Source: a virus (Duplodnaviria; Caudoviricetes). Taken from it: a stretch of DNA of 56,756 bases. How positions within the stretch are numbered: the stretch's first letter is position 1; every line of letters begins with the position of its first letter. Made by a program: the position numbers and the translations under genes. This document shows positions 120 to 56,461 of the stretch, one piece after another. The DNA is taken from the IMG/VR virus record IMGVR_UViG_3300049926_000118, positions 1 through 56,756 of that record. One strand, given 5' to 3'. The notes under the pieces are model-generated. The model had not been told where the DNA came from. It saw only the letters and a list, made by a program, of their open reading frames with translations, and did no database searches.

Positions 120-476
120 ATGAAAATGTTAAATCCACGTAAGGAAACAAAATCGCATACAAAGAATGATGAACATTATGCTACTAGGGGTGATCTTAGG
201 GATACTGAATATCGTCTAAACATCGCAATCCTTGAAACTAAACATGAAATCAAGGAAACAGAATTAATATTAAAAGCGGAAATAGTTAAGTTAGAAGGAT
301 CAATTTCTAATGTAGAAACTAAGTTAGAAGGATCAATTTCTAATGTAGAAACTAGATTGACAGGGGAAATAAAAGCCCTTCAGATACATAATAAGTGGAA
401 TATGACAATACAGGTAATTATCTTTACCGGTGTCTTTGCTCCTCTCTTAACACCTCTTAGTAAATTATTCTTATGA
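120..476 (+). CDS. Coiled-coil protein with C-terminal membrane anchor (DUF1640/CCDC90/Bdr-like)
   Basis: ATRGDL motif, 11-aa repeats KLEGSISNVET x2, hydrophobic C-terminus; AGGA upstream of ATG. Confidence 0.6.
   Translation: MKMLNPRKETKSHTKNDEHYATRGDLRDTEYRLNIAILETKHEIKETELILKAEIVKLEGSISNVETKLEGSISNVETRLTGEIKALQIHNKWNMTIQVIIFTGVFAPLLTPLSKLFL
288..353 (+). repeat. Perfect 33-bp tandem repeat x2 inside CDS
   Basis: aagttagaaggatcaatttctaatgtagaaact at 288-320 and 321-353. Confidence 0.95.
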
Positions 477-577
477 AAACTATGATTCAAGAGCATATTA
501 AAACTAAACCAAAATCAGAAATGTGAAGTTACATCTAAGACCCAAATATCATTTAATCCAATCACTTATTTAATAAC

Positions 578-864
578 ATGAAAGAAAAAGAAGGGAGATA
601 AAAATGATTTTAGATACGCACAAAGAAATAATACATTTAAAAGAATTAGGCTTTGATGAAAAGAAAGCCGAGGGGATAGTGCAATTACATGTTAAGACCA
701 GCGAACAGCTTGCTACAAAAGCTGATATTGCTCATCTAGAAGATATAATGAAATTTGACAGAACCCTATTAGTAGGAATATTTCTTATGATGCTGGTTTA
801 TTTAATAAAAACATTTGTTCACTAAATATGAAAGAAAAAGAAGGGAGATAAAAATGATTTTAGA
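578..864 (+). repeat. 37-bp direct repeat spanning RBS and start of two paralogous genes
   Basis: atgaaagaaaaagaagggagataaaaatgattttaga at 578-614 and 828-864, 250 bp apart. Confidence 0.95.
604..825 (+). CDS. DUF1640/CCDC90-like small membrane-anchored protein
   Basis: DTH..I..LKELGF.EKKAE.IV and LATKADI motifs, C-terminal TM segment, GGGAG RBS. Confidence 0.7.
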   Translation: MILDTHKEIIHLKELGFDEKKAEGIVQLHVKTSEQLATKADIAHLEDIMKFDRTLLVGIFLMMLVYLIKTFVH

Positions 865-1159
865 GACGCATAAAAAATATTACATAGAGCATTTAAAAGT
901 CATGGGGGCTACGCCAGAATTGGCGGAAGCAATAATAGAGCTTCATATAGAGGGTGGAGAGCATCTTGCAACTAAAGCAGATATTATTCACTTTGAAAAT
1001 GCAACCAAAGCCGATATTGCTCAGCTTGGATCAAAAATCGAGAAAATAGAAACTAAGATAGATACTAATAACAAGTGGGTTATGGCAGTCTTATCAACTA
1101 TACTCACCGTTTTACTTAGTGAAGGTATCGGTATTATCATAATATTGCTCAGTAAATAG
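854..1159 (+). CDS. DUF1640/CCDC90-like protein (paralog of 604..825)
   Basis: ATKADI twice, C-terminal TM; start moved from 815 to ATG 854, which follows the duplicated GGGAG RBS. Confidence 0.7.
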   Translation: MILETHKKYYIEHLKVMGATPELAEAIIELHIEGGEHLATKADIIHFENATKADIAQLGSKIEKIETKIDTNNKWVMAVLSTILTVLLSEGIGIIIILLSK

Positions 1160-1170
1160 GCAAGAAAACT

Positions 1171-1491
1171 ATGAAAGACAAAGAACTTTTGCTGAAAGCT
1201 ATCGATAATTACGATGTTTATACTCCAAAACAACGAGAAATCTTAAAAACTTTAATAGGGATTTCAGTTAATGATATAGCAATTATTACCCCTCGTGAAT
1301 TGACAAAGCTTCTAAATACGACTAAAGCCACTGTATATTATAGCCTAACACGTTTGAAAGAGGACGAAATTATAATAAACCAAAATGGAGAAAAAGAACG
1401 GTTCAGCATTCACCGCCTCAACAATACTAAATTAGATGATATCCTTACGGTCTACAAAAGAAAAACAGAATATTTTAAAAAAAATATCTAA
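1171..1491 (+). CDS. Winged-HTH transcriptional regulator
   Basis: TPKQREIL...TPRELTKLLNTTKATVYYSLTRLKEDEII helix-turn-helix pattern. Confidence 0.65.
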   Translation: MKDKELLLKAIDNYDVYTPKQREILKTLIGISVNDIAIITPRELTKLLNTTKATVYYSLTRLKEDEIIINQNGEKERFSIHRLNNTKLDDILTVYKRKTEYFKKNI

Positions 1492-1509
1492 ATACTTTAC
1501 AAAAAATAC

Positions 1510-1537
1510 TTGACTCTAATTAAACCAATGATATACT
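1510..1537 (+). promoter_or_regulatory. Sigma70-type promoter for the recombination operon
   Basis: TTGACT-16 bp-TATACT with extended -10 TG. Confidence 0.5.
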
Positions 1538-1564
1538 AATCTCATAAACAATTTATGAGGCAGT

Positions 1565-2062
1565 ATGAAAATTCAATCAAAAACACCACTTTTTAATTTT
1601 TGTAGTACAATTAATTTATTTAACAATAATAAATTAACTGATATGCAAGAATGGGAAAAACAAAGCGTTGAAAAAGCTAAGGTAAAACTTTATCCAACAT
1701 TCCACGAAAAAGCTCCGGTCATTCAAATGATCGATAACCTAGAGAATGTTCATAAGGCTTTTGTAGCTATGTCTAAAAGAGCTTATCTAAAGATGCTGGA
1801 AAGCGAAAGAGGAGCAGAGATACTGGTATCTGCAAAAAAATATCATATTGCTTATAACAAAGATGACATTGATTGGCTGCATCTTATCGATCAAATAGAG
1901 AATTATGAAGAACTATTGCAACAAGCAAAGAATAATAATTTGATTTGGGATCTCGAAAACTACGATCCGATTGGACTAAAACAATTAATTGAGGATGATA
2001 TCTCGCAGGAAAGAGAATGGTCTCGAGATCAAAACTCCGATTATTTAGAGACAAGAATATAA
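1565..2062 (+). CDS. Hypothetical protein
   Basis: 165-aa ORF with GAGG RBS. Confidence 0.6.
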   Translation: MKIQSKTPLFNFCSTINLFNNNKLTDMQEWEKQSVEKAKVKLYPTFHEKAPVIQMIDNLENVHKAFVAMSKRAYLKMLESERGAEILVSAKKYHIAYNKDDIDWLHLIDQIENYEELLQQAKNNNLIWDLENYDPIGLKQLIEDDISQEREWSRDQNSDYLETRI

Positions 2063-2122
2063 ATAATCGAAGTTTTGATATTTATCGCAAATAGTGAGTA
2101 AACGATAAAGATATTATAAATC

Positions 2123-2452
2123 ATGGTAGAAAAAAGGTCAAGTTGGATAGCTACATTTGTTAGTTACGAAGTTTTAGAAAAGTGGAAACCTCCATACTTA
2201 AGAAGATTGTTCTTTAAAAACTTAAGAGATGAAACAGGGCTTATCGTAAGAGAAGATATTTTTTTTATAGATGAATCCGAATCAATGAGAACAGGTCGTT
2301 TTCTGATTGGGGATGTAGTTAGTTTTTATGCTTACGGGGATTTGTCGGGAGTAGAATTTTATCATCTATATGAGGGGGATACAAAAAAATGGAGAAAGAA
2401 ATGGAAAAAAGTTCAAAAAAATGGAGGAAAAAATGAAGGAAGTAAATACTAA
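2123..2452 (+). CDS. Hypothetical protein
   Basis: 109-aa ORF overlapping start of next gene. Confidence 0.5.
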   Translation: MVEKRSSWIATFVSYEVLEKWKPPYLRRLFFKNLRDETGLIVREDIFFIDESESMRTGRFLIGDVVSFYAYGDLSGVEFYHLYEGDTKKWRKKWKKVQKNGGKNEGSKY

Positions 2453-3161
2453 TGTTATAGATAATTCTACAATGGGAGCAGCTTCTCTAGAAAAAGTCTT
2501 AATTACAGGAGATTTATCAAGCTTATCTTCTCATGAAAGAACGGTATATTACACAACATTATGCAAAAGCCTTGCTTTGAATCCACTAACAAAGCCATTT
2601 GATTACATAACTCTCAATGGAAAACTAACTCTCTATGCAAAACGTGATTGTACAGAACAACTTCGTAAGATCAATAGCGTGTCTATCGCTATTTCATCAA
2701 GAGAGGTATCAGAAGATTGTTATATCGTTACAGCGAAAGCTACAGACGGGACTGGGAGAACGGATGAGTCTATAGGAGCAGTTTCTATAAGCAATCTTAA
2801 AGGAGAAGCTCGTAGCAATGCAATGATGAAAGCGGAGACTAAAGCTAAAAGACGTGTAACACTATCGATTTGTGGCATGGGAATGTTAGATGAAGTCGAG
2901 GTTTCTAGTATACCACTATCTATGATTGAGATTCCTAACGAGGATGCTAGAAAACTTGAGGTAACCCTTTCGCATAAATTAAAGACCCTATGCGTAACCA
3001 ATGGTATATCAGCACGAGAATTCGCAAAGTTTCACAAAATCGAGGGTGATAAGCCTGAAACCGTAAAATATGGTGTAGATAATTTTGCTTTACTAAAGGA
3101 ACAATTTGAAACTTTCAGAAAAGAGCAATTTGTAGAAGTAGAAAATGAAAATACACACTGA
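2433..3161 (+). CDS. Putative phage single-strand annealing recombinase
   Basis: GDLSSL..ER..YY..LC..L.LNPLTKPF and AMMKAETKAKRRVTLSICG motifs; directly upstream of exonuclease; start placed at ATG 2433 after GGAGG. Confidence 0.6.
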   Translation: MKEVNTNVIDNSTMGAASLEKVLITGDLSSLSSHERTVYYTTLCKSLALNPLTKPFDYITLNGKLTLYAKRDCTEQLRKINSVSIAISSREVSEDCYIVTAKATDGTGRTDESIGAVSISNLKGEARSNAMMKAETKAKRRVTLSICGMGMLDEVEVSSIPLSMIEIPNEDARKLEVTLSHKLKTLCVTNGISAREFAKFHKIEGDKPETVKYGVDNFALLKEQFETFRKEQFVEVENENTH

Positions 3162-3780
3162 ACTTCAACAAGGATCTGACGAATGGCATAGAATGAAGCT
3201 TGGCAAAATATCCGCTTCATCATTTTATAAGCTACTTGGTACAAAAGCAGCTCGTAATAAATATCTTTATGAGTTAGTAAGTGAGAGAATTACTTCTTCT
3301 AAATCTGATAGCAAAGAATATGCAAATTTCCATATGCAGCGTGGTAATCAATTTGAAGATGTAGCTAGAGAAACTTACAAAGATAAAACCTTTTATGAAG
3401 TGCAACAGGTAGGACTAATCCAATTAAATGATGATGTAGTATGTTCTCCTGATGGATTAGTGGATGAAAACGGGTTAATAGAGATAAAAGTTCCTGATTC
3501 ATATAATTATATTGCTCAGGTTTTAGATATAGACCAAAACGGAATAAAGGGGATACCAAATGAATATTATACACAAATGCAAGTTAATTTATATATATCT
3601 AATCGTCAATGGTGTGACTATGTGCTATATAATCCAAAGCATGATGCTGTAGGAAATGGGATATTTACTCACAGAGTAGAAAGAGATATGGTATATAATG
3701 ATACTATCAAAATAGCTATTGAAGAAGGTGTAAAAACAATAAATCAATATATTATTGAGTACAAAGAAGCATTCAAATAA
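3145..3780 (+). CDS. YqaJ/lambda-exonuclease family protein
   Basis: QGSDEW...GKISAS, MQRG..FE, CSPDGLV, IEIKVP, YYTQMQ motifs. Confidence 0.9.
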   Translation: MKIHTELQQGSDEWHRMKLGKISASSFYKLLGTKAARNKYLYELVSERITSSKSDSKEYANFHMQRGNQFEDVARETYKDKTFYEVQQVGLIQLNDDVVCSPDGLVDENGLIEIKVPDSYNYIAQVLDIDQNGIKGIPNEYYTQMQVNLYISNRQWCDYVLYNPKHDAVGNGIFTHRVERDMVYNDTIKIAIEEGVKTINQYIIEYKEAFK

Positions 3781-4168
3781 AGTGAAAGAAGCTAAAGAAA
3801 GAATAGAGCAAATAAATATCAAGATAGGTAATAATTTGCTGAAAACTCGGCTTGCAGCTGGAGTTAATACTGCACAATTAAGTAAAAAAGTATATGTTAC
3901 GAGACAACAAATAACAAAATACGAATCTGGGATTAATCAAATTCCTATTGGTAGATTAGTTTTGATAGCAGAAGCATTAGAGGTTAATATAACATCTTTC
4001 TTTGATGGAATTTGCGATCTTTTTCCGGCAAAGAAAGTAAAAGCACGAAAAAGACTTTGCGCAGATATATCTCGTAATCTCGTAAAAATAAAAAATCATG
4101 ATACACAGAAAACTATACATAAAATAGTCAAAGAAATAGTAAATAGTCAGGATTTTCTTAAGGAATAA
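3755..4168 (+). CDS. XRE-family HTH regulator
   Basis: IGNNL..TR...G......L...V.VTRQQI.KYESG.N HTH_3 pattern. Confidence 0.85.
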   Translation: MSTKKHSNKVKEAKERIEQINIKIGNNLLKTRLAAGVNTAQLSKKVYVTRQQITKYESGINQIPIGRLVLIAEALEVNITSFFDGICDLFPAKKVKARKRLCADISRNLVKIKNHDTQKTIHKIVKEIVNSQDFLKE

Positions 4169-4328
4169 TATCTGTTAGCGTTGGTCTAGGAGCTTTATAT
4201 TCCGCACTTTGATTTTTAGCAATATTAAAAGATGCATATTCTTCGCTCTTAAAAAACTTTATAAAAAGAAATACAAATAGAATCATTAGTAGTATACGGA
4301 AAATTTCAATAGAGAATCTTGGAGACAT
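4158..4328 (-). CDS. Small single-TM hypothetical protein (not in ORF track)
   Basis: 56-aa ORF MSPRFSIEIFRILLMILFVFLFIKFF... read by hand. Confidence 0.3.
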   Translation of the reverse strand: MSPRFSIEIFRILLMILFVFLFIKFFKSEEYASFNIAKNQSAEYKAPRPTLTDIIP

Positions 4329-4398
4329 AAATATTTATAGAAGTTTAATGAATTAACATTTTATCATAAATATTATTTTATGGTGAAAAATAAAATTT

Positions 4399-4701
4399 TT
4401 AATATTCAGTTATTTCTATAGGATAAAGAGCTTCAACCTGCTTTTTCTTCAAGATATACATTGCAGTTTTCATTCCTTTTACATCTTCAAATGTTACTTC
4501 TCCATTAGTCCAAAATATGACAAAATCGCATATGTATTTTACATTCCCTGGCAAATGAAAAGGTACTTGTCTTAAGAAGAATAATACGTCTCCCGCTTTT
4601 ATAAGCAAAAGCAATGCTTGATATCTTTTAGCTTCTTTTTTAGAGTCAAACTTTATTCCGTCTAATTCCGTGCGAATTGCATGAAACTTATGTGTTGTCA
4701 T
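4399..4701 (-). CDS. DUF1064 family phage PD-(D/E)XK endonuclease
   Basis: KFHA.RTE.DGIKFDSKKEA.RY, YICDF, EDVKG motifs. Confidence 0.85.
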   Translation of the reverse strand: MTTHKFHAIRTELDGIKFDSKKEAKRYQALLLLIKAGDVLFFLRQVPFHLPGNVKYICDFVIFWTNGEVTFEDVKGMKTAMYILKKKQVEALYPIEITEY

Positions 4702-5099
4702 AAGCTAATTTCAAGTTTAATATGTCTACTAGCCATTCCCATTTCTCGCTGAGGATTCAAGTAATTTTTAATATTCTTGAGTACTTTGCAGGTTATACGA
4801 TTAGCTAGTTCATCTGAGATATCCTCATTTTTATTCTCCTCTTCTTTATGCTCGTGGACTACTTTTGGCTGATGAATTACTTTTGGAGTACTCGGTCTTG
4901 ATACCGGTTGTTTTTCCTGTATCATTTTAGCTAAAGAAAAAGGTTCTCTCTTATATTTATTTAAAAATGAAGAAGTATCATCTAATTCATCTTCATTTGA
5001 TTTCATAGAGGATGGTAATTTAATAGCTGCTAGAATAGGATTTACCCTTTTAACAGGTGTGACTTTTCTATGTATTGCGAATTGTTTAGCTCCTACCAT
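4698..5099 (-). CDS. Hypothetical phage protein
   Basis: 133-aa ORF overlapping DUF1064 gene by 4 nt. Confidence 0.55.
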   Translation of the reverse strand: MVGAKQFAIHRKVTPVKRVNPILAAIKLPSSMKSNEDELDDTSSFLNKYKREPFSLAKMIQEKQPVSRPSTPKVIHQPKVVHEHKEEENKNEDISDELANRITCKVLKNIKNYLNPQREMGMASRHIKLEISL

Positions 5100-5107: not shown

Positions 5108-7063
5108 CTATTGTTTAACCCATTGACCGTTTACTGCTTTAAATCCTCCAGCGATCATTCCTTTTATGCCCGATTGTGCAGTAGGTTCACTTGTAAAAAA
5201 AGGATTATCACCCAAATTCCTTTTAGCGCTAAAAGCACTAAGAGGACGAATTGGCATATTATTCATTGAATTTACCCAAGCTACATATTCAGGACTATTT
5301 CTTGAATATGTTTCAGCCCTTAAACCAGCCAATCTTTGGGTTTCTGCCGCCTGTGCTTGTTGCTGTTGTTGCGCTCGCATTTGCGCTTGTTGTGCTGTTT
5401 GTCTTTGAGCTTCTGCTGCTTGAGCAGCTTGTTGTTGCTGCTGCCTCGTTTGGAATACTCCTAACTGACGCTGTAAATCAGCTATAGTAGCATTGCTAGT
5501 ATTTAAATTTCTATTAGCATTTTGAGCTTCTTTTTGAGATTCACTATAATTTGTGTTTAATCCAGCTAATTGATCTAGTGATATATTTCTATTTTCTAAC
5601 CCTTTAAACACATCACCAAGAGCTCCTAACCGCCCCTCTTTAGAAATTGCACCACGCAAGTGAGGCCATTCCCAACCGGCTTCATTTTGGAAATTCTTAT
5701 ATAAATCTTCGTTTTCAGCCTGTTCATTACCAAACTTAGTAGCTCCAAGGTTGTTAGTACTTCTAATCTTATTAAGCATATCCTCATATTCTCTTTGAGT
5801 TTCGTCTCCATACATACCTAATTGTTTTAGCTTAGATTGTTGCTCTTGATGCCCTAGGGAGAGTTGTGATTTAGCGGCATCTTCTAATAATCTGCTTCTT
5901 TGCTCCATAGTTGATTTTGAGACTTCTCTTGCTCGATCTTCAGCAGTTTTGATGTGCAAAGGAGAACCGTATTGATTTGCTTGGATGAATTGGTTATTTA
6001 TTGCAGCAAGATCTCTTTTAAAGCGTTTCTCAGCAGCAGATTCTAAATTGCTTACTTGACCCTGCATTCTTTCAGGAACAGTACTCATTGCAGTATCTCC
6101 GACGCTCTGGTTAGCCATCATTTGTCTAATAAGATCTTTTTGTCTGTCATATTGAGAACCCTTAAATTTAGGACTCATCGACTCTAATGTACTATGAGAG
6201 GCTAAAATTTCTGGAGGAAGATCCGCCATTAATTTACCTGGATAAGACTGAGAAGGAATTCGAGAGTTTTCCCACTCGGACACAGGTTTATTTGTATCTA
6301 TCCCGTAAGCTTTGAGTGCTTGTAAAGCTTCTTTTCCTGATTGGGCTTGTAGTTCTGGTAAAGCATTAGGATCCATATTTCTGCTTAAAGGATTAAGCGA
6401 TTGTTGCAACATGTCCATTTTTCTAAATGGTAAATTTGCCTCTTGCTCAAATGCATTTTTATTAGCTGAATTTACTAGATTATTATAGCCATGTTTCTGA
6501 GCTCCGAATTGCTCTAATGATCCTACTAACCCTTTGCGCCTATCTTGTTTTTGTGCCTGTAAATTTCTAAGCTTATCTAGCAGAGCTTGATTACTTGATT
6601 GCTCTAGAACGCCGGCTGATCGCCGTAAGTCGCCCATCCGACCTGTGGTTTCATTGAGATTAGCTCCAATATCTTTATTCGACTTATTTAAGAACCTACT
6701 CGCATTCGGGTTATAAGCTCCTCCAAATTGGTTGCCTAGGATTCCAGATAACCCTCTTCTATTAAAATTCTGTTGCTGATTCCCTATATTATTAAGAGTT
6801 CCTTGCATCCCCATTGGGTTAATAGCTGGATTAGAGCGACCAAGCACTTGATTTATTTTACCTGAGTAAGGAGCGGGTTTTGCATTAAAGCCACTTTGTA
6901 ATGCTCGAGCTTTTTGAGTAAGGCTCGACATCGGAGAAATGGTTTGTCCACGATAAATGGGGGCATTAGTTCCTGCAAGTTTAGCTCTATCTCGAGTTAA
7001 AATTCTTGCTCCTTCGTTAAAAACCTCTTCCGGAGCTAAATCAGATGCATATCTTAATGTCAT
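5108..7063 (-). CDS. Putative internal virion/DNA ejection protein
   Basis: 651 aa, Q/A/N-rich helical composition, position at end of tail module. Confidence 0.55.
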   Translation of the reverse strand: MTLRYASDLAPEEVFNEGARILTRDRAKLAGTNAPIYRGQTISPMSSLTQKARALQSGFNAKPAPYSGKINQVLGRSNPAINPMGMQGTLNNIGNQQQNFNRRGLSGILGNQFGGAYNPNASRFLNKSNKDIGANLNETTGRMGDLRRSAGVLEQSSNQALLDKLRNLQAQKQDRRKGLVGSLEQFGAQKHGYNNLVNSANKNAFEQEANLPFRKMDMLQQSLNPLSRNMDPNALPELQAQSGKEALQALKAYGIDTNKPVSEWENSRIPSQSYPGKLMADLPPEILASHSTLESMSPKFKGSQYDRQKDLIRQMMANQSVGDTAMSTVPERMQGQVSNLESAAEKRFKRDLAAINNQFIQANQYGSPLHIKTAEDRAREVSKSTMEQRSRLLEDAAKSQLSLGHQEQQSKLKQLGMYGDETQREYEDMLNKIRSTNNLGATKFGNEQAENEDLYKNFQNEAGWEWPHLRGAISKEGRLGALGDVFKGLENRNISLDQLAGLNTNYSESQKEAQNANRNLNTSNATIADLQRQLGVFQTRQQQQQAAQAAEAQRQTAQQAQMRAQQQQQAQAAETQRLAGLRAETYSRNSPEYVAWVNSMNNMPIRPLSAFSAKRNLGDNPFFTSEPTAQSGIKGMIAGGFKAVNGQWVKQ

Positions 7064-7072
7064 AAATAACTC

Positions 7073-8713: not shown

Positions 8714-8992
8714 TTAAACCTCTATGTTTTGTGGCTCATTATTTAAAAGTAAGTAGACAGTCCTTGCCCATTCCTTCCAGTCCTTAAAATTGTCTTTTCT
8801 GGTTCCTTTGTAGACCGAGAACGGAGAAGGGACACGATTACGTCTAAATACCCCAGTTCCCGCTACAATAGCTGCCCATTCTTGCCATTTATCTTCATCT
8901 ACAAGAGCCGGTAGGTAAGAAGAAGAATTGTCTGCTACTAACGCTCCAGCCCAATTTTTTAAAGTTATATATTCAGGGTAAACTACTAACAT
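8714..8992 (-). CDS. Small phage tail-region protein
   Basis: 92 aa, WQEWA/WKEWA motifs, abuts both neighbours. Confidence 0.6.
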   Translation of the reverse strand: MLVVYPEYITLKNWAGALVADNSSSYLPALVDEDKWQEWAAIVAGTGVFRRNRVPSPFSVYKGTRKDNFKDWKEWARTVYLLLNNEPQNIEV

Positions 8993-44461: not shown

Positions 44462-44468
44462 TTAGTCC

Positions 44469-44771: not shown

Positions 44772-44783
44772 TTATGCATCTCC

Positions 44784-47666: not shown

Positions 47667-47784
47667 TTTAAAAATATTTTCATTTATTTTTAAAATACCT
47701 ATTGACACTGTCCTTGATGTAGGATAATGTGAACTTGGAGTTGCGAATGTTTGCATTCATTAATATATAAAAATAGGAAATAAT

Positions 47785-48300
47785 ATGAAAAAAGAAACAC
47801 TAGAAAAAATAAACCCTATCCTCAATAAGCATTTTAATAAATTAAATGAAATAGCTATTACAGCAATCAGTGATGAAGATAAAAAGCAATTAATCGATGA
47901 TATAAGAAATGATCTTGATTATGATAAAAATAAGCTGTCGGATATCGACTTATTAAACATAGGTATTGGACCATATGCAGCAGGTTTAATAGTAGATTTA
48001 AACAAAGAAGCCTTTGAAATCTTAGTAAGAGGGGTGGATATCAGGCTTTATTATAAAACACCTAAAATTAATTACACCTTTATGACTAATGCTGCTAAGT
48101 ATGGTTGTTATTATAAGGTTGAGTCATTAATAAAGAATCATGTATGTTCACCTAAGGATATTAGTGCAGCATTAACTCATATTATGTATGTAAATTCAGG
48201 AGTTGGAGGAGGATTACCACCTTATAAAAAGATCATCGAGCTATTAAAAGATAGCTACTATTTTTGTTATGACGAAGAAAATAAAAGATATTATATATAA
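47785..48300 (+). CDS. Hypothetical protein, possible degenerate ankyrin-like repeat
   Basis: TFMTNAAKYGCYYKVESLIK resembles an ankyrin helix pair; AGGA RBS. Confidence 0.5.
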   Translation: MKKETLEKINPILNKHFNKLNEIAITAISDEDKKQLIDDIRNDLDYDKNKLSDIDLLNIGIGPYAAGLIVDLNKEAFEILVRGVDIRLYYKTPKINYTFMTNAAKYGCYYKVESLIKNHVCSPKDISAALTHIMYVNSGVGGGLPPYKKIIELLKDSYYFCYDEENKRYYI

Positions 48301-48444
48301 AGAGTTGTAAACAGTTGCCTTAAGCTAGGACTCAGTATATCGCAATATCTAAGACACCCCGCATGGAGCGGACGTTCACTTAAGGCATGTATATACTATA
48401 CCTCAAGACTTTTCATTAATCTACTTGGTATTTTATCATCCATA

Positions 48445-48861
48445 TCAAAAGGGTATTTCATCGTCATTAAGATCATGATGAAATACAGCTGCCTTAGGCG
48501 CAGGTTTGATATCCTCTTTGCTTTCTGTGAATGCTAATATTCTAGGGAATCCATTGATACTTACTTTAAATGACGCAGCCGGTTTCCCTTCTTTGTCAAT
48601 GTAAGCATCGCAACGGGGAATTCCCTCAAGATAAAGTGGCATTCCTTTTTTGATATATTGTTTTATATAATTAGCAACAGACTCAATTCCTGTTTGGCAC
48701 TCATACCATGTCGTAGTTTTTATTTCTTCATTAGTGTTTTTATCTTTCCTTTTAGTTGTTACCGATAATGAAAAGGTAACAAAGTTCGGATTGTTTGATG
48801 ATGGTGCAATAGGATCTTTCCCCACATAACCAAAAAGCTCTATTTTTGCAGATGTTATCAT
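48445..48861 (-). CDS. ssb: Single-stranded DNA-binding protein
   Basis: L.G.VGKDP, FSL.VT, TTWY, KKG..LYLEG, C-terminal DDEIPF. Confidence 0.92.
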   Translation of the reverse strand: MITSAKIELFGYVGKDPIAPSSNNPNFVTFSLSVTTKRKDKNTNEEIKTTTWYECQTGIESVANYIKQYIKKGMPLYLEGIPRCDAYIDKEGKPAASFKVSINGFPRILAFTESKEDIKPAPKAAVFHHDLNDDEIPF

Positions 48862-50621: not shown

Positions 50622-50670
50622 TTTAATTCCTACTCTTTTTTAAAATTTTTAATTAGGTATAAAAAAGTGA

Positions 50671-50765
50671 TTGACAATTTGACGCACAAAAACTATTCTG
50701 AAGTCGGACTTGCTTTAGTTTTTGGGGGATTTCTGGTGCGTCAAAAAATCCCTTCACTTTTCTTT
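50671..50765 (+). ncRNA. Candidate counter-transcribed antisense RNA with its promoter
   Basis: TTGACA-17-TATTCT (50671-50699), hairpin gggattt...aaatccc, then T-rich tail; antisense to initiator leader. Confidence 0.5.
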
Positions 50766-51035
50766 CTTATTTCTTTTTCTTATTTCCTTTTCTTTTTCAA
50801 TAGCAGATCTCAAGTTTTTTCTGCACATCGATGTCTCTTCTATTGAATCCGACAAAAGAAACAATACCGTACGACACTTCTTACTACAGACTTCTAGTTG
50901 CTCGGTTAATCTCTTACTATTCTCAGTCATAGGTTGGTTACGTTCGTCTTTAAAAAATCTCAAATCATCATCTATCGTAAGCCATGTACAGGCACTTGAG
51001 ATAAATTTGCGCATGTCTTCAATTGTTAAGTGCAT
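50754..51035 (-). CDS. Hypothetical protein
   Basis: 93 aa, AAGGAG RBS, overlapping operon. Confidence 0.55.
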   Translation of the reverse strand: MHLTIEDMRKFISSACTWLTIDDDLRFFKDERNQPMTENSKRLTEQLEVCSKKCRTVLFLLSDSIEETSMCRKNLRSAIEKEKEIRKRNKKEK

Positions 51036-51204
51036 TTTGCTCCTTCAACTTATCAATTAGATCAAGTAATGTAGTAAACTCACTTTTAAAAGCAGCTGAT
51101 CCCATAAAAGCAGGGTATCTTCCCTTACTCATTCTTTTTATTCTTGTAGCTACTGTTAATAAGTCGGTGATATCTAATTTTTCCTGCATTTCAATTTTCT
51201 TCAT
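51019..51204 (-). CDS. Hypothetical protein
   Basis: 61 aa, overlapping operon. Confidence 0.45.
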   Translation of the reverse strand: MKKIEMQEKLDITDLLTVATRIKRMSKGRYPAFMGSAAFKSEFTTLLDLIDKLKEQNALNN

Positions 51205-51478
51205 TGTTTTTATCTTGCAAGCCGCATCTTTTCTTGATGTCAGAAATTGCGCTTTGAATTATTTTTACATATCTTTTCTTCGAGAGAAGTTCTAGGCTAT
51301 CCAAGTTCCTTTCTAGAGATGTTATCATTTCCACTTCCTCCCATCCGATTACTCGAATGTCTTTGTCGTCTCCATCCTTATCATCAAAGTAAAAATCATC
51401 ATTTATTTGTTCTAACAAAGTGCGTATAGCTGCTATTTTTTTATCGTGTTCAAGGATATCGTCAAGATTTTCTAGCAT
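51191..51478 (-). CDS. Hypothetical acidic protein
   Basis: 95 aa, GGAGG RBS. Confidence 0.55.
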   Translation of the reverse strand: MLENLDDILEHDKKIAAIRTLLEQINDDFYFDDKDGDDKDIRVIGWEEVEMITSLERNLDSLELLSKKRYVKIIQSAISDIKKRCGLQDKNNEEN

Positions 51479-51617
51479 TTTTTATCCTCCATCATAAATT
51501 CCAATTCGTCTAATAGTTCAATAATTGAGTTTACGCATTCGTACGCTTCTTCATGTTCATGATCGATACCCTCTTTTATTGCTCCTAGTAAACTGATCGC
51601 AGTTTCAATTTTTTCTT

Positions 51618-51950
51618 TCATATGATGCCTTTTAATTCTTTAAACCAAAAATCATGAGTTAATTCGATGTAAAAACTATTATCATTTAGTCTGTTACCTC
51701 TCGTCAGTAGTTTAAATCTCTCGAGTTCAACCAAAGCTTTTCTAATACTTTCATAACCATAACTAAGTTTATTTTTTAAATACTTATAGCTAACTAATAA
51801 TGTTGTTTCATCCTCCTCAAGAGACATTTTTATTAATTCTCGATATAAACAAATAGCTCTTTCGCTTTCTAATTCTTTTAAAAGTGCAGCAATTATCAAA
51901 TAATTACTAAATATTGTGTTCAGTTTTAAAAAAGCATCTTGTGTTGCCAT
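51618..51950 (-). CDS. Winged-HTH protein
   Basis: VSYKYL...L....ESIRKALVELE...LL.R pattern typical of replication-protein HTHs. Confidence 0.6.
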   Translation of the reverse strand: MATQDAFLKLNTIFSNYLIIAALLKELESERAICLYRELIKMSLEEDETTLLVSYKYLKNKLSYGYESIRKALVELERFKLLTRGNRLNDNSFYIELTHDFWFKELKGII

Positions 51951-52072
51951 AAAAAATCTGTTAATTTATATTATAACTCCACTAAAATAATACCGCTTGA
52001 CAACGTTAAACGGCTATCTTATTGGAGTTTAGACCAAAAAAAAGGGTGGAAATCTCGAAAAAGATTAAAATC

Positions 52073-52144
52073 ATTTTTTTGTCTCTAACAATTTTTTTGT
52101 CTCTAACAATTTTTTTGTGTCGAACAATTTTTTTGTGTCGAACA
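52073..52144. repeat. Four 18-bp tandem repeats
   Basis: atttttttgtctctaaca x2 then atttttttgtgtcgaaca x2. Confidence 0.92.
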
Positions 52145-52235
52145 AAGTAAAAAAGGGTGTGGCGCATAAAATTGTTTTCTTTTAGTTTTAGATGTGCTTT
52201 GGTGGCGTTGATCTAAAACGGTTATTAAAAAAATT

Positions 52236-52267
52236 AGATGCCTACTTCATGTAGGCATCTTTTTTTT
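52236..52267 (+). terminator. Intrinsic terminator (possibly bidirectional)
   Basis: agatgcctac-ttcat-gtaggcatct followed by T-run. Confidence 0.75.
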
Positions 52268-52415
52268 ATTTCAAATGATATTATTGAAAATTATTTAAGA
52301 TAGCAAGTTGATTTTTTAACCATTGAAATATAAATAGAATCAGTATGAAAAAATTATATTGATATTTTTTATAAAATGGCAGATTGTTATGTATGCTCAA
52401 TCAACTTAAAATTAA

Positions 52416-52865
52416 TTGTATATTATGTTTAAAATATTCCAAAAAAATGTAGAAAACAAAGAAAAATCTAAAGTAAAAAGCTCACCTAATGAGATTGATA
52501 AGGAAGTCAGTAAAAACTTAAAATCTAGAAGAATATTGTTGGGTTTGATCCAAAAAGATATAGCTAAGGAGGTTGGTGTAACTATCCAACAAGTACAAAA
52601 ATATGAAAAGGGAATAAATAGAATTGCAGCTGGAACATTATTCGGATTAGCCCAATTTTTAAAGGTGCCAATTGATTACTTCTACCAACAAAGCGATAAG
52701 GGGCTCATAGGAGGCGATAATTTTTCTTCGGAGGGGGGGGGGGTGCCTTGCGAACATTCTTCTTCTAGTAACGCGCAAACAATTACATTAGTAAGGGAAT
52801 TTAGAAAGATAAAAAATCCACGAGATAGAAGAAAAGTTATAGACATGATAAAAATGGTAAATTGA
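52416..52865 (+). CDS. XRE-family HTH regulator (candidate repressor)
   Basis: PNEID..V...LK.RR...G..Q...A..VGVT.QQVQKYEKG.NRI; divergent from replication operon. Confidence 0.88.
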   Translation: MYIMFKIFQKNVENKEKSKVKSSPNEIDKEVSKNLKSRRILLGLIQKDIAKEVGVTIQQVQKYEKGINRIAAGTLFGLAQFLKVPIDYFYQQSDKGLIGGDNFSSEGGGVPCEHSSSSNAQTITLVREFRKIKNPRDRRKVIDMIKMVN

Positions 52866-52874
52866 TCTATCTTT

Positions 52875-53525
52875 TTACGAATGAAAAGTTACATCAGTTT
52901 CATGATGCTGCCCTACTACTTCAATAGGAACTTCTTCGATCGTAGTAGATAATATAGGAGCTTCGTCTTTTTGCTCTTGTAGTTCTTTTATTACCATATC
53001 TTTGAAAGGGGGCAGTGGTGATGGTTCAGCAATTCTAGCTAGCGTTAAAATTCCTTCGCCAAATAAAAAATCTATATAGCCATTTAGATCTAGATCCAAG
53101 CTGGAAACATGAATTTTAACTTTTCCCATTTGAAAACTCTCGACAAAAGCCAATTTTTTAATAAATAAAATTGCTAAACGTGGGGGGGATTCCACCACAT
53201 ATCCAAAATCCTCAGTATCCTGGCAACCAATAATGCCGGAAAAATTTGCATAATAACCCGTTTTTCCATTGTAGTGATATCCGTGAGGAGTATTTACTCT
53301 TACAATCCCTGAATAAAGATCTAAATCTAATTGATTATTTCCTTTATCAAATATCAACTTTATTGCTTCAGAAGAAAACCTAACAAAAATAGCTCCTCCC
53401 TCCACCATTGAATCGTTTATCCTAATTGTCCCTTTAATAAGATCAATCAAATCTACTAGGGAAACTTTTTTGCCCTGGGTAGCAATATGTGCATAGTGAT
53501 ATTTTATTTCCATTGATTTAGACAT
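52875..53525 (-). CDS. Hypothetical protein with acidic C-terminal tail
   Basis: 216 aa, GGAGG RBS. Confidence 0.6.
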   Translation of the reverse strand: MSKSMEIKYHYAHIATQGKKVSLVDLIDLIKGTIRINDSMVEGGAIFVRFSSEAIKLIFDKGNNQLDLDLYSGIVRVNTPHGYHYNGKTGYYANFSGIIGCQDTEDFGYVVESPPRLAILFIKKLAFVESFQMGKVKIHVSSLDLDLNGYIDFLFGEGILTLARIAEPSPLPPFKDMVIKELQEQKDEAPILSTTIEEVPIEVVGQHHETDVTFHS

Positions 53526-53586
53526 AATTTATCCTCCATTCTTTATAACATCTAACATCATTATTTTATTCTGTGCAACCATTAAT

Positions 53587-54459
53587 TTATAATAATCCTA
53601 ATCCATTTATTGCATCTGTTACGGATTTAAAACCATTGAAAGGCGGAAGCTCATGCGTAATATTCTTCTTAGGTTTAACATAAATATTGCTCGAAATTCC
53701 AGTTTTTGGATTAATTACTCGCTGAACTATAGTTTTTTTGAATGAAAACTCAATAGTTAATACTTTACGTCCTTCCTTAAATTCCTTGAAGGTTAGACCA
53801 TAATCATAAATTTTATTTATTTCTTGACGGGCGTGCTCAAAGGTTCTTCTTTTAAAGTCTTTATATTCCTTCAATTTATCTCCAACCGCAAATATTTCTC
53901 TTAGTTCTTCAACTGATTTTCTTATCCAACCCGTTTCTTTGAATTCTTGGATTAATTCATATAAACGGGTAGTATATAAGCTATGAAAGCCGCTTACTTC
54001 TTTTAGGTTATATAATACGAATTTTTGTTTAGCTTCTTGTGCTAGATAAGGCATTATATCATCGGTGAACTTTATAGTTATACGACCTTCCTTTTCGCAG
54101 TATTTTGCTGTGGAACATACATTAACTTCCAAAATTTCATCTAATTCAATTTTGTTCAAGAAGATACTAGTTTTCATCAGCTTCTTACATGCCTTCTTTA
54201 ACAAACCATAACTATCTGATATAGGAACATCAAACATCTGGCTAAACTCTTTTGCGGTCAATACATGTTCTCTCTGTAATTGCTCCGGCTGTAGATATTT
54301 ACCATATCCATCAACTCCACCTACCTTAGTCACCAAATGCAAAAATACTTTATAGTCAGAGTGAGTAAGATCGCCAAAGTTAGCATTATTCAGCTTCTTA
54401 TCTTTATAGACTTTTGGTGTTTTAGAATTTAAAACCGGAAGGAAGTTACTTTTTTTCAT
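53587..54459 (-). CDS. Plasmid replication initiator, Rep_3 (RepB) family
   Basis: Y..LK.A...LM, I.FT..IMPYL, Y.L.E...F.S.YT.RLYEL, FK.R....A..EIN, K.GRKV..I.F; iterons upstream. Confidence 0.9.
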   Translation of the reverse strand: MKKSNFLPVLNSKTPKVYKDKKLNNANFGDLTHSDYKVFLHLVTKVGGVDGYGKYLQPEQLQREHVLTAKEFSQMFDVPISDSYGLLKKACKKLMKTSIFLNKIELDEILEVNVCSTAKYCEKEGRITIKFTDDIMPYLAQEAKQKFVLYNLKEVSGFHSLYTTRLYELIQEFKETGWIRKSVEELREIFAVGDKLKEYKDFKRRTFEHARQEINKIYDYGLTFKEFKEGRKVLTIEFSFKKTIVQRVINPKTGISSNIYVKPKKNITHELPPFNGFKSVTDAINGLGLL

Positions 54460-54541
54460 TATTTAATCTTGATATATCTAATAGCGTCAAATTATCTTCC
54501 ATCACTTTTAATGTCAATGGTTATTTTTGAGAAATTTTCTA

Positions 54542-54824
54542 TGTGAATAACCTAACCTTTTCGAATAGGAAAAAGTCCTATTTTAGGTGGAAAAAAGTCC
54601 CATTTTAGATTATGCATAATTTTACTATTTACATTCCTTATATCTTATGACTTCTAAGGCAAAATTTTGCTATATTTCTTAGGTGGAAAAAAGTCCCAGT
54701 TAGGTAGGAAAAAGTCCCATTTACCACCCAGAATACCTTATACCATAAGCCCTGCAAGGCGCCTATAAATACTTATAAAACTATATATAAAAGATATATG
54801 AAAGGGATAACTTTGGTGGATAAC
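54542..54824. repeat. Plasmid origin: four iterons plus DnaA-box-like sites
   Basis: ttaggt(g/a)g(a/g)aaaaagtccca at 54583, 54679, 54700 and partial at 54566; tgtgaataa 54542 and ggtggataa near 54816; AT-rich tract. Confidence 0.8.
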
Positions 54825-54901
54825 TAAAAATCTAGAAACATTTATTAAAATCCGCTAAGGTATAGATTAGGTCTTAAGTGATCATTCAAGAGGAGAAGTA
54901 T

Positions 54902-55156
54902 ATGTTAATTGATACACTTGATGCAGTAAAGAAGTTACGTGCAGCTAATATTCCTGAAGAACAAGCAGAAGCGATTACTAGCATCATTGCCAATATAGAT
55001 GATACAGTTGCTACGAAAGCAGATATTAAAATGCTAGAAACCAAGATTGATACAGATATTAAGATGCTAGAAACCAAGATTGATATTCAAACATCGTGGT
55101 TAATTAGATCCGCATTTGTGATTATCGGGCTCTTGATAAAAATAGCCTTTTTTTAA
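54902..55156 (+). CDS. DUF1640/CCDC90-like protein
   Basis: IDTL..VKKL..A..PEEQAEAI, VATKADI, DIKMLETKID x2 (33-bp repeat 55021-55086), C-terminal TM; start at ATG 54902 after GAGGAG. Confidence 0.8.
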   Translation: MLIDTLDAVKKLRAANIPEEQAEAITSIIANIDDTVATKADIKMLETKIDTDIKMLETKIDIQTSWLIRSAFVIIGLLIKIAFF

Positions 55157-55245
55157 GATTTGGTTTAATTTGTGAGAGAAAATGAAAAAAGAAAAAAAAT
55201 GTTATACGCTAGTGGAAAAAAACAAGTTTCAGTTAGAAGTCTTAT

Positions 55246-55383
55246 ATGATAGAGTTACAAGAAGATATTGAGGATTACAATGATGCCGTTAGGATCTCAA
55301 CAATGAATAACCACTCTCTTTCTTTGGAACAAGTGATTAAAGATTTAGGGTTAAAAGACGAATTGGACAATTGGAATAGGTGA
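55246..55383 (+). CDS. Mini-protein resembling C-terminal half of RelB/DUF6290-type antitoxin (not in ORF track)
   Basis: 45 aa MIELQEDIEDYNDAVRISTMNNHSLSLEQVIKDLGLKDELDNWNR; ED.EDY..A and SLE.V.K.LGL motifs. Confidence 0.55.
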   Translation: MIELQEDIEDYNDAVRISTMNNHSLSLEQVIKDLGLKDELDNWNR

Positions 55384-55601
55384 TAACTGTGAAAAATATT
55401 GAGGAAACTTTATTTGTGGCGTCTAATAGGAAGCTAAGCGAGTCACTCATTGAAGGACTGAATACACCTTATGAAGAATGCACGACAATTTCTATCAAAA
55501 ATTCCAATAGACTAGGAATATTTAAAAATAAAATCAAAGTGGCTGATGACTTTGACGAATGGCCAGATGATATAACTACAATTTTAGGGGTTGAAGATTA
55601 A
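55380..55601 (+). CDS. Fusion of YefM/Phd-like and VapB/DUF2281-like antitoxin C-termini
   Basis: IEETLF......ES..EGL.TP.EEC followed by R.G.FK.KIK.ADDFDE.P; GTGA overlap with upstream stop. Confidence 0.6.
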   Translation: MITVKNIEETLFVASNRKLSESLIEGLNTPYEECTTISIKNSNRLGIFKNKIKVADDFDEWPDDITTILGVED

Positions 55602-55604
55602 ATT

Positions 55605-55733
55605 ATGAAAAAGGGTTACTCTATCGAGTGGGATGAGTTTAAAAAAGCATTAGACGATGATCCCAAAATGCAAGAAATAATAAAAACTATTTTGAAACAT
55701 GAGACAAAAAATGAAAGTAACCAAAAAATGTAA
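55605..55733 (+). CDS. Mini-protein resembling N-terminal arm of HigA-like antitoxin (not in ORF track)
   Basis: 42 aa MKKGYSIEWDEFKKALDDDPKMQEII...; WDEFKK.L..DP motif, no HTH. Confidence 0.4.
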   Translation: MKKGYSIEWDEFKKALDDDPKMQEIIKTILKHETKNESNQKM

Positions 55734-55872
55734 ACTATGCCTTAAGTATAGTGGATATAATAAAGATACTTTAAAAGCCATAGAAGAATCAAGGCAAGGA
55801 ATAGATATTAAGGCATTTTCCTCAATTGAAAAAATGTTTAAGGAATTAAATAGCAATGAGGAAGGCATCTAA
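55711..55872 (+). CDS. Mini-protein resembling C-terminal half of DinJ/RelB antitoxin (not in ORF track)
   Basis: 53 aa ...YNKDTLKAIEESRQGIDIKAFSSIEKMFKELN; N.(D/E)T..AIEE...G.....F.S...MF.EL motif. Confidence 0.6.
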   Translation: MKVTKKCKLCLKYSGYNKDTLKAIEESRQGIDIKAFSSIEKMFKELNSNEEGI

Positions 55873-55936
55873 CAAAGTAATACACTGTTACAGCTACATA
55901 TAACTAACTTCTTTTATTAATTTTTGTTCTGAATGA

Positions 55937-55993
55937 AGTCAATACTTATATTGACTATTTTACAGAATTAGTCAATACTTATATTGACTAATT
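55937..55993. promoter_or_regulatory. Two identical palindromic operators
   Basis: AGTCAATA-CTTA-TATTGACT at 55937-55956 and 55970-55989, directly upstream of HTH gene. Confidence 0.8.
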
Positions 55994-56008
55994 TAGAAAG
56001 GGTTTTAT

Positions 56009-56461
56009 ATGGATTGGGGTTTAAGACAAATTACTTGCGGGCAATTATCAGTGCAAATCTTGCCTCTTAAAGAGGTTGTAAGACCTAGCATAGGTTGGAT
56101 AAAAACTATACGAAAAGTTTTAGGTATGACCAGCCAACAACTAGGCAAGAGGTGCGGAATCAGTAAACAGCGGGTCTTACGAATAGAACAAGACGAGGTA
56201 TTGGGAGTAATTACATTAGCTACTTTAGAAAAACTAGCTAAGCAATTAGATTGTGAACTAGTATATGGTCTTGTGCCTAAAAAGGATTTTAAGCGAACAA
56301 TTTTAGTCCAAGCTGGAAAAAAAGCAAGAGAGAGAATAGAAAGGGTTTCTCATACAATGGTTCTTGAAAACCAAGGAATAAGTGAGAAGGAGGAAAGACA
56401 ACAACTTGAACTATTAATGAAACAGATATTAGATAAAAATATAAAATCTTTATGGGATTAA
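56009..56461 (+). CDS. Mobile mystery protein A (XRE HTH)
   Basis: P..GWIKTIR..LGMT..QL..R.G....RV..IE..E..G..TL.TL...A..L.C.LVY.LVP, V.HTM.LENQ, LWD end. Confidence 0.88.
   Translation: MDWGLRQITCGQLSVQILPLKEVVRPSIGWIKTIRKVLGMTSQQLGKRCGISKQRVLRIEQDEVLGVITLATLEKLAKQLDCELVYGLVPKKDFKRTILVQAGKKARERIERVSHTMVLENQGISEKEERQQLELLMKQILDKNIKSLWD

Follow-up and report, generated by a model that had tools for sequence, protein, structure and literature searches.

A soil metagenome contig as the probable genome of a podovirus-like phage-plasmid of Megaira-related Rickettsiales

We analyzed the complete IMG/VR record IMGVR_UViG_3300049926_000118 (Caudoviricetes), a single contig of 56,756 bp, which is called the window in the following. 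The contig is probably the near-complete genome of a short-tailed temperate phage in Megaira-related Rickettsiales, which would be carried as a low-copy plasmid and not be integrated. The window consists of two parts, a virion block of ~31 kb and ~25 kb of plasmid functions of the Rickettsiaceae type, and independent assemblies show both parts joined. Closed circular plasmids of Megaera polyxenophila and Bealeia carry the same combination of modules. A preliminary description, made from the nucleotide sequence, had already proposed a podovirus-like phage-plasmid of a Rickettsiales-type host.

Virion block and plasmid-type functions

The virion and packaging genes occupy positions 5108-36286 and are encoded entirely on the minus strand. 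The block holds the full packaging and virion gene set of a tailed phage, consisting of the large terminase subunit (TerL), portal, capsid, adaptor, nozzle and tail fibre, and judged from its sequence it appears complete. The complete genome G003, an IMG/VR record of 57,948 bp with a 127-bp terminal repeat, matches 29 of the open reading frames (ORFs) of the window. 27 of these are located in the block, where their order is kept, and outside of it only helix-turn-helix (HTH) regulators match. All 27 shared block ORFs are full-length open frames. Further relatives are G001, a fragment of 37,188 bp (estimated to be 68% complete) which was found by a search with the N-terminal fragment of TerL, the Megaera plasmids CP113869.1 and pPCS109 (AP017967.1), the plasmid pBealeia1 and the phage CRP-902.

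The portal (30678-33101, 807 aa) was identified by its match to phrog_1216 (E 5e-19). The major capsid protein (25033-25950) showed no direct match in Pfam, PHROG or PDB and is Mu gpT-like through the annotation of its homologs. It is 36% identical over 303 aa (E 3e-51) to gp57 of CRP-902, described as "major head subunit", and 44% identical over 302 aa to a "Mu-like prophage major head subunit gpT family protein" of pBealeia1. Between portal and capsid lies a head-assembly block (25971-30354) of four proteins with 326, 381, 142 and 346 aa and a GroES-like protein (29866-30354; phrog_3188, co-chaperonin GroES, E 8e-9), with syntenic homologs in the Megaera plasmids, pBealeia1, G001 and G003.

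The tail genes include an adaptor (10584-11228; Pfam SU10_adaptor, E 1.8e-14, above the cut-off; SU10 adaptor 7z47, E 0.0016) and a nozzle (8992-10584; phrog_3287, E 2.5e-25; PDB 8zkk/8zkm "nozzle gp16", E ~6e-8). Adaptor and nozzle form the tail hub of short-tailed phages. By portal tblastn, the closest named phages are CRP-901/902 (31-32% identity, 96% of the query) and HTVC023P/027P (32-34%). Together with the adaptor and nozzle pair, these phages support the earlier assignment of the contig as podovirus-like. In agreement with the preliminary description, no tape-measure, sheath or tube family was detected in 80 Pfam and 30 PHROG submissions. The tail fibre (16639-19824, 1061 aa) carries a C-terminal intramolecular chaperone domain (Peptidase_S74, E 7e-10) and matches tail fibre and tail spike families of PHROG. 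Its gene contains a tandem duplication of 240 nt (18127-18606, 82% identical), which corresponds to repeated domains matching a PHROG "head decoration" family. Three more tail or virion proteins (11229-15576; 725, 398 and 321 aa) have homologs in the Megaera plasmids, G001 and G003, and one of them (14611-15576) matches the baseplate protein family phrog_20556 (E 1e-7). The N-terminal part of another protein (22310-23371; phrog_12985) is similar to the "tail adaptor" gp54 of CRP-902 (42% over 93 aa); this protein is also 42% identical over 352 aa to a Megaera plasmid protein annotated as "Discoidin domain-containing". Two large proteins of 651 and 546 aa (5108-8713) have no Pfam match. Homologs are found at the equivalent position in CP113869.1 (30-38%), G001 (64-76%) and G003 (29-47%), and both are candidate internal or ejection proteins.

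The genes for plasmid-type replication lie outside of the virion block. A Rep_3 initiator (53587-54459, minus strand) was detected with both of its domains (Rep3_N, E 5e-29; Rep3_C, E 8e-14). Four iterons with 17-nt cores are arranged in two tandem pairs (54567-54722), 108-263 nt upstream of the initiator gene. Their pattern occurs five times in the window (the remaining match is located at 9966) compared to 0.45 expected matches, and none of 100 shuffled sequences reached this number. A second initiator of 587 aa (48858-50621, minus strand) contains a DnaA_N domain (Pfam, E 2e-6, above the cut-off) and found nothing in the PDB sequence search. It is followed by a gene for a single-strand binding protein (SSB; 48445-48861, minus strand; Pfam SSB, E 8e-11). 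Initiator and SSB (48445-50621) represent a candidate second replicon. Both systems, Rep_3 with iterons and the second initiator with SSB, are present as the preliminary description had stated. In addition, four tandem 18-nt repeats (52073-52144; four matches, a number reached by none of 100 shuffles) are located in a divergent intergenic region between a small ORF and an HTH regulator. They are a candidate for a second origin, a centromere or an operator.

The partition region (37282-38907, minus strand) comprises ParA, a 72-aa ORF, two small ORFs and a WGR-domain protein (37282-37506; Pfam WGR, E 2e-8). ParA (38245-38907) is clear in Pfam (AAA_31, E 9e-24; CbiA, E 1e-14), and it is through this protein that a partition system is recognized. 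The ribbon-helix-helix (RHH) partners named in the preliminary description were found less clearly. The 72-aa ORF (38030-38248), a candidate centromere-binding partner, has no Pfam match and is an ESM Atlas lead to Arc, CopG and omega-like clusters (scores 0.92-0.93, TM 0.57-0.66, residues ~24-72).

No tyrosine integrase (PF00589) was detected in the window, as described before, while the control was positive in 14 of 14 genomes. Recombinases and transposases were likewise not found in the 80 Pfam submissions, in which serine recombinase families were not searched separately, and the Pfam scans of the window revealed no family related to insertion sequences (IS) or introns. Most phage-plasmids of the P1, N15 and SSU5 groups are myo- or siphoviruses whose hosts are free-living Enterobacteria and Firmicutes. 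They follow the same logic of virion genes combined with a replicon and a partition system and lacking an integrase (Pfeifer et al. 2021, as cited in PMC9560607). A sequence relationship with these classical phage-plasmids was not seen, and the window differs from them in its podovirus type and its probable obligate intracellular host lineage.

The junctions between the modules were recovered independently. G001 is collinear with the window from 2963 to 40323 and contains matches for 43 of the 90 window ORFs. Its gene order consists of the early module, the virion block, TerL, an outer-membrane protein similar to the Rickettsia adhesin Adr, ParA and a major facilitator superfamily (MFS) transporter. 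The identities to the window were determined in all of these parts (YqaJ exonuclease 88%, nozzle 69%, capsid 55%, portal 68%, TerL 76-88%, Adr-like protein 80%, ParA 86%, MFS transporter 92%, DUF1064 protein 87%). The sequence was also detected in six soil metagenome runs of three studies, one of which is possibly the source of the record. Logan contigs of run X1 cover ~19884-41840 with a depth of 224 and 41811-56756 with a depth of 210, and a contig of run X2, which belongs to a different study, covers ~28016-37398 with ~99% identity. Runs X3 to X6 contain 0.16-0.25 of the words, which corresponds to diverged relatives. In a contig of run X3 from such a relative (depth ~9), position 55921 jumps back to 40712 via 27 foreign letters. 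This is the pattern of a circle of ~15 kb or of a rearrangement of the plasmid-type block alone, seen in a single contig of a single run.

Taken together, the following cycle can be proposed. Rep_3 would bind the four iterons, and/or the DnaA_N initiator with SSB would fire a second origin, while ParA and its small RHH partner would segregate the copies of the element. Three Cro/CI-type regulators may silence the late genes, which share a palindrome-headed leader. The resident element would express cargo which alters the surface and the transport of the host, namely the Adr-like outer-membrane protein, the MFS transporter, a MazG-like protein and DUF1640-like proteins. Upon induction, protein trans-splicing at Walker B would unite the TerL halves, and DNA would be packaged through the portal into gpT-like capsids with an adaptor-nozzle tail and fibres.

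A fractured terminase gene with a split intein

TerL (33560-36286) consists of three ORFs. The preliminary description had listed an intact-looking module of head, portal, terminase and short tail, of which all components are present, but TerL is not one intact gene. The N-terminal fragment (35480-36286) starts with an N-extein of ~171 aa, which ends with GGSMLV and is followed by an N-terminal intein half (IntN) of 97 aa. IntN starts with cysteine and contains the motif TADH. The C-terminal fragment (33560-34750) starts with a C-terminal intein half (IntC) of 39 aa ending with ILVHN, followed by a C-extein starting with CDDPNN. Both fragments share one frame. Between them, a free-standing gene in a different frame (34684-35508) encodes a zinc-finger-rich HNH homing endonuclease of 274 aa. 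Its overlaps with the neighboring ORFs amount to 29 nt on the upstream and 67 nt on the downstream side, and the match of the protein to Pfam HNH (E 3.8e-4) reaches 21.0 bits compared to a cut-off of 21.4.

The Pfam family Intein_splicing matches both TerL halves, with IntC corresponding to the profile positions 122-155 of 155 (E 7e-6). The N-terminal half also matches PT-HINT in Pfam and, in PDB, the NrdJ-1 split intein (E 3e-7, best match) and DnaE split inteins, while the PDB sequence search with the C-terminal fragment returned nothing. Aligned to the uninterrupted TerL of pPCS109, the two exteins meet directly at the Walker B motif, with neither a gap nor an overlap between them. An empty site was found in G001 and in a further relative (L105), where the window positions 34630-35778 are absent.

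All 16 aligned N-terminal fragments have the residues Cys172, Thr240 and His243 without exception, and all of them end at the same point. The database contains 117 homologs of this fragment, ~39 of which have a length of 253-295 aa and cover at least 88% including the intein half. Three relatives (L101, L103 and L104) show the same layout of three ORFs, with HNH homologs that are 41-43% identical. Because the arrangement and the intein residues recur in relatives, the split of TerL is not an assembly error. Two co-oriented halves with Cys1, TxxH, a terminal HN and Cys+1 are present, and a free-standing endonuclease gene lies between them and overlaps the start of the downstream half. Based on these features, TerL of the window is a fractured gene with a canonical split intein in the Walker B motif, for which splicing is predicted. 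Its conservation with invariant catalytic residues argues for function and not for decay.

Fractured genes were described by Dassa et al. (2009; PMC2677866), and the window fits the dimensions reported there. IntN was reported with 88-105 aa (97 aa in the window), IntC with 33-54 aa (39 aa in the window) and the overlap of the endonuclease with the downstream ORF with 6-69 nt (67 nt in the window). In the available text of this work, only GIY-YIG and Vsr-like endonucleases were seen and HNH was predicted as possible; the endonuclease of the window is of the HNH type. The sole terminase locus given there is gp17-like (Myoviridae) and has an unusual split point, whereas the split in the window is canonical and located in Walker B. 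To the known fractured genes, the TerL locus contributes a canonical split intein that is paired with an HNH endonuclease and for which both empty and occupied alleles are available. Three distant IMG/VR relatives (L109, L113 and L119) show a single open TerL frame of ~900 aa across the intein position. Within this long frame, L109 and L119 additionally contain an HNH-like match which is read in another frame. The long frame would represent either a contiguous intein or a read-through of a fractured gene.

Host affinity, related elements and alternative readings

The plasmid-type genes point to Rickettsiales, the host group to which the preliminary description had seen a resemblance. The best match of Rep_3, on the Ca. 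Megaera polyxenophila plasmid CP113873.1, shows 64% identity and spans 91% of the Rep_3 length, and the next best match reaches 28%. The 11 best tblastn matches of the MFS transporter are plasmids of Megaera/Megaira, Rickettsia and Paracaedibacter (44-52%), followed by matches of at most 30%. For the DnaA_N initiator, all 42 matching records in PLSDB belong to Rickettsia (31) or Ca. Megaera/Megaira (11); these matches extend over 28-67% of the query and have 24-47% identity. For ParA, the identity is 68% with a Megaera plasmid copy and 67% with a copy on a contig of Ca. Bandiella numerosa, where ParA adjoins TerL and the portal. With the DnaA_N initiator and ParA, the window contains the backbone genes of Rickettsia and Megaira plasmids. 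The Adr-like outer-membrane protein points to the same group.

The portal leads to similar hosts. In species-representative genomes, the closest matches (44-45%) were found in Bandiella numerosa, Megaera venefica, two metagenome-assembled genomes of Rickettsiales and a contig binned as Saccharibacteria; the other nine matches reach 30-33%. In a quick maximum-likelihood tree of 39 rows, which was returned with a long-branch warning, the window falls into a clade of 16 rows (SH-aLRT 100) with all six named symbiont elements. This clade includes plasmids or contigs of Megaira, Bandiella and Bealeia. The window branches after Bealeia and before the remaining members, and marine phages are located on the other side.

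The plasmids CP113869.1 (Megaera polyxenophila NDG2, 64.4 kb, circular) and pPCS109 carry virion genes in the order of the window with 27-58% identity, comprising TerL, portal, the GroES-like protein, capsid, adaptor, nozzle and the large virion proteins. They also share ParA, a DnaA-like initiator, the MFS transporter, DUF1640, YqaJ and an outer-membrane protein adjoining TerL. In contrast to the window, their TerL is uninterrupted, and they contain IS256, group II introns, toxin-antitoxin pairs and methylases, with many IS-type "integrase" genes on pPCS109. Portal identity between these plasmids and the window is only 43%. Rep_3 with iterons, whose closest homolog lies on another Megaera plasmid, distinguishes the window from both.

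The plasmid pBealeia1 of Ca. Bealeia paramacronuclearis (Holosporales; NZ_CP133271.1, 57.5 kb, circular) belongs to the portal clade of the window (37%). Besides the capsid, it shares the GroES-like protein, the adaptor, the YqaJ exonuclease, a ParA-like ATPase and a similar size. Its own genes include six RebB R-body genes, a PriCT-2 primase-like protein and a RecD-like helicase, and its TerL is present in pieces at 21.3-22.0 kb. The RebB annotations are located at 2344-4635 and 30825-39255 of this element of the same phage lineage. According to the available part of a 2026 paper on R-bodies, direct evidence is lacking for their link to phage-like particles (PMC13689365).

Among named phages, the marine pelagiphages of the HTVC023P type, which are called Podoviridae (PMC9599517), and the marine roseophages of the CRP-901 type are the nearest by portal identity, and their relationship to the window is distant. 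They share a homologous, syntenic structural and packaging module with the window (portal 31-34%, TerL 28-38%, capsid 36%), including the GroES-like protein, adaptor and tail fibre in similar order, and their genomes have a size of 52-61 kb. In the portal tree, the window belongs to their sister clade. These phages carry their own primase-polymerase and helicase (PMC10149686). The window in contrast contains plasmid initiators, ParA and symbiont-type cargo. A replication module and lytic cycle of the phage type were not recognized in the window, in which no ORF matches the replication genes of CRP-902.

Phages of Rickettsiales are represented by Wolbachia phage WO, which integrates, and by MAnkyphage. 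Both resemble the proposed kind of the window in this respect. MAnkyphage was reported from Megaira polyxenophila inside Cryptomonas (PMC10925606). No Wolbachia phage was found among 18 phage records matching the window portal, and no plasmid of Cryptomonas-hosted Megaera polyxenophila among three plasmid records matching the portal. None of the listed phage records that match portal or TerL came from Megaira. The preliminary description had considered a new lineage. This novelty was overstated, since homologous phage modules are already present on deposited plasmids of Megaera polyxenophila and Bealeia and MAnkyphage has been reported. A description of these elements as phage-plasmids was not found in our literature search, which lay outside the primary MAnkyphage paper and its supplements, where an overlap is possible. 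In their available text, several publications mention plasmids and phages in general terms only (PMC13134042, PMC11909080, PMC9560607, PMC10847448, PMC13689365).

Several observations weigh against a near-complete phage-plasmid of Megaira-related Rickettsiales. The host is deduced from the similarity of plasmid genes, which are horizontally mobile, and the samples are soil metagenomes with no linked host genome. One of the five closest portal homologs (44% identical) lies on a contig of 2,973 bp (L019, CAITDW010000215.1) from a Ca. Saccharibacteria bin; this label is probably a binning error. Out of 301 genomes sampled from the order to which Megaera venefica belongs, 3 contain a portal homolog, and the portal lineage is therefore rare among the genomes searched. 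The record is classified as linear, and its ends share neither an exact terminal direct repeat of 10-400 nt nor a circular overlap. A minus-strand ORF is truncated by the right end. No endolysin was found in the window with the five families searched and no holin was recognized among its proteins, which leaves lytic release unsupported. The candidate small terminase subunit (TerS; 46972-47628, minus strand; phrog_1482, E 1.4e-7; Pfam Sf6_terminase, E 4e-4, below the cut-off) is a weak assignment at a distance of ~10 kb from TerL, and TerL in three ORFs would need the predicted trans-splicing. Among the relatives, G002 (L104) and G003 (L106) have terminal repeats and carry no Rep_3, ParA or integrase, the fragment G004 (L108) carries a tyrosine integrase and G001 carries ParA. 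Lifestyle thus varies among relatives and can not be transferred by homology. The plasmid reading rests on the genes of the window and on the symbiont relatives.

The terminal repeats of the complete relatives G002 and G003, which lack plasmid and integrase genes, would fit a podovirus that is virulent or in a carrier state in a Rickettsiales-like host. Such a phage would have borrowed Rep_3 as its own initiator and ParA for transient carriage and would not form a stable plasmid prophage. CRP-901 and CRP-902 were judged strictly lytic by their authors (PMC10149686), and the very high depth in run X1 (210-224) is expected for a replicating phage. However, two plasmid-type initiators, ParA with its partner, three CI/Cro regulators and host-interaction cargo exceed the usual equipment of a lytic phage, and three complete symbiont genomes contain the mix of modules in the form of stably assembled circular plasmids. 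We regard a virulent phage as unlikely.

It is also quite unlikely that the contig is a phage-derived plasmid which no longer makes infectious particles, domesticated or decaying like the Megaera plasmids ridden with IS elements and introns. The absence of recognizable lysis genes, the split TerL and the weak and displaced TerS would agree with decay. The Megaera plasmid relatives carry IS256, group II introns and truncated genes, and the genomes of Megaera venefica and Bandiella gave no capsid match with the window query. In the window, however, the block ORFs shared with G003 are all full-length and in the same order, no IS or intron family was found in the Pfam scans and CheckV completeness is 100. 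The fractured TerL is kept in many relatives with invariant catalytic residues.

An integrated prophage, with integrase and attachment sites beyond the contig ends, would explain the missing end repeats and the ORF cut at the right end, and the relative G004 has a tyrosine integrase. We consider it very improbable. Element-type genes are located at both ends (DUF1640-like paralogs and an HTH regulator), no chromosomal gene was found within the 56.8 kb, which also bears on the chromosomal flanks considered in the preliminary description, and besides the CheckV completeness of 100, the contig is as large as complete relatives (57.9 and 58.2 kb). An assembly chimera between a phage and a plasmid unrelated to it, which could be suspected for any metagenomic contig and from the GC content (0.34 overall; ~0.35-0.41 in the virion block, 0.29-0.34 elsewhere), is hardly credible, because G001 with its same module order and the Logan contigs of two runs from two studies, which bridge the joins at even depth, independently show identical joins, and closed Megaera and Bealeia plasmids carry the same mix. 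None of the outcomes which the preliminary description had named as refuting its reading was observed.

Rickettsiales and Holosporales are obligate intracellular bacteria which are hard to manipulate genetically. Their known mobile elements besides WO are mostly conjugative plasmids and islands. If the window is an intact phage which persists by plasmid functions of the Rickettsia type, virion-mediated gene flow would exist in these lineages. The occurrence of phage genes on several Megaira and Bealeia plasmids in the databases would then be explained, and R-body plasmids would be connected with a defined phage lineage. More tentatively, a single podovirus-type phage-plasmid lineage may circulate among obligate intracellular bacteria which live in protists and are not related to each other (Rickettsiaceae, Midichloriaceae and Holosporaceae) and ferry host-interaction cargo, a possibility which we would not yet favor. 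The cargo would then include the Adr-like surface protein and transporters in the window and the R-body genes of pBealeia1. In endosymbionts of protists, a connection of phage-like particles and plasmids with killer traits has been observed for a long time. Such a lineage would give this connection a genetic identity, and it would offer a natural vehicle for DNA delivery into bacteria with almost no genetic tools.

Cargo, regulation and early module

Among the cargo genes, to which the WGR-domain protein of the partition region is also counted, the outer-membrane beta-barrel adjoining TerL (36484-37191, minus strand) was described as opacity-like before. The barrel was recovered, but it is better described as Adr-like. 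It matches the NCBIfam model Rick_Adr (NF052636) with E 2e-34 over residues 7-235 (profile positions 7-224 of 224). The score of 119 bits lies below the cut-off of 210, and the protein is, by its sequence, a barrel related to the Rickettsia Adr adhesins and not a family member under the rule of NCBI. In PLSDB, only rhizobial and Methylobacterium records were matched (25-29%), which means that it is not a shared plasmid gene in this database. For 9 of 10 window proteins, NCBIfam returned nothing useful.

The ProP-like MFS transporter (39185-40513, plus strand; Sugar_tr, E 1e-20; MFS_1, E 2e-17) is followed by a MazG-like pyrophosphatase (40720-41175, minus strand; phrog_2164, E 2e-21). The MFS homolog on plasmids of Rickettsia and Megaera adjoins a SpoT or HD-domain (p)ppGpp gene, whereas the neighbor in the window is MazG-like. 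At the left end, three paralogous coiled-coil proteins similar to DUF1640/CCDC90 are encoded, each with a membrane helix at its C-terminus (120-476, 604-825 and 815-1159, plus strand). A fourth copy (54878-55156) is 30% identical to the DUF1640 protein of CP113869.1. Of these paralogs, which the preliminary description had noted, two match PF07798 below the Pfam cut-off (604-825, E 0.016; 54878-55156, E 1e-5). The paralogs have C-terminal hydrophobic segments, have the DNA repeats D6-D8 in common and are present at both contig ends. Ankyrin repeats of the family Ank_2 were not found in the window. RebB was not found either, in a search whose control was negative everywhere and which is uninformative.

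A 77-nt repeat, which is headed by the 15-nt palindrome AGTTTCGACGAAACT, is located directly upstream of late genes at three sites (15588-15664 on the minus strand, 19837-19913 and 26970-27046). The palindrome occurs in the window at these three sites only, a count which none of 100 shuffles reached, and it is absent from 100 comparison loci. Partial copies of the element are present at three equivalent places of G001 (13501-13526, 17480-17547 and 24451-24467), and no copy was found in G003. Most simply, the element would be a shared late promoter or operator. A scan for sigma-70 promoters gave 54 sites where chance alone predicts 53.6, and the number of terminators was likewise close to chance.

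Three Cro/CI-type HTH regulators were identified by HTH_3, the first at 3755-4168 (plus strand; E 3.5e-9), the second at 52416-52865 (plus strand) and the third at 56009-56461 (E 3e-13 and 2e-9 for the latter two). Logan contigs in runs X1 and X2 extend 30 nt beyond position 56756, and the first 12-20 nt of the window have no inverted copy. Searches of the window detected no tRNA and no Rfam family, and megablast gave no match for 24 kb of the window against phages and 23.8 kb against plasmids.

The recombination and early module (2370-4168) starts with a putative single-strand annealing protein (2370-3161, plus strand), for which the only lead is an ESM Atlas match to viral clusters; in one cluster, 20% of the members carry Rad52_Rad22. 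It is followed by a YqaJ-type exonuclease (3145-3780, plus strand; Pfam YqaJ, E 5e-25) and the first HTH regulator. A DUF1064 protein is encoded next to the module (4399-4701, minus strand; Pfam DUF1064, E 7.6e-17). An adjacent ORF of 133 aa (4698-5099) was considered as an endolysin and dropped, as its sequence looks of low complexity and charged. In G001, small RHH-like and RelE/ParE-like ORFs (L180, 2420-2915) are located between the HTH regulator and the DUF1064 gene, where the window has none. An ORF of 45 aa at another position of the window (55246-55383) is 55% identical to part of the RHH-like ORF of G001.

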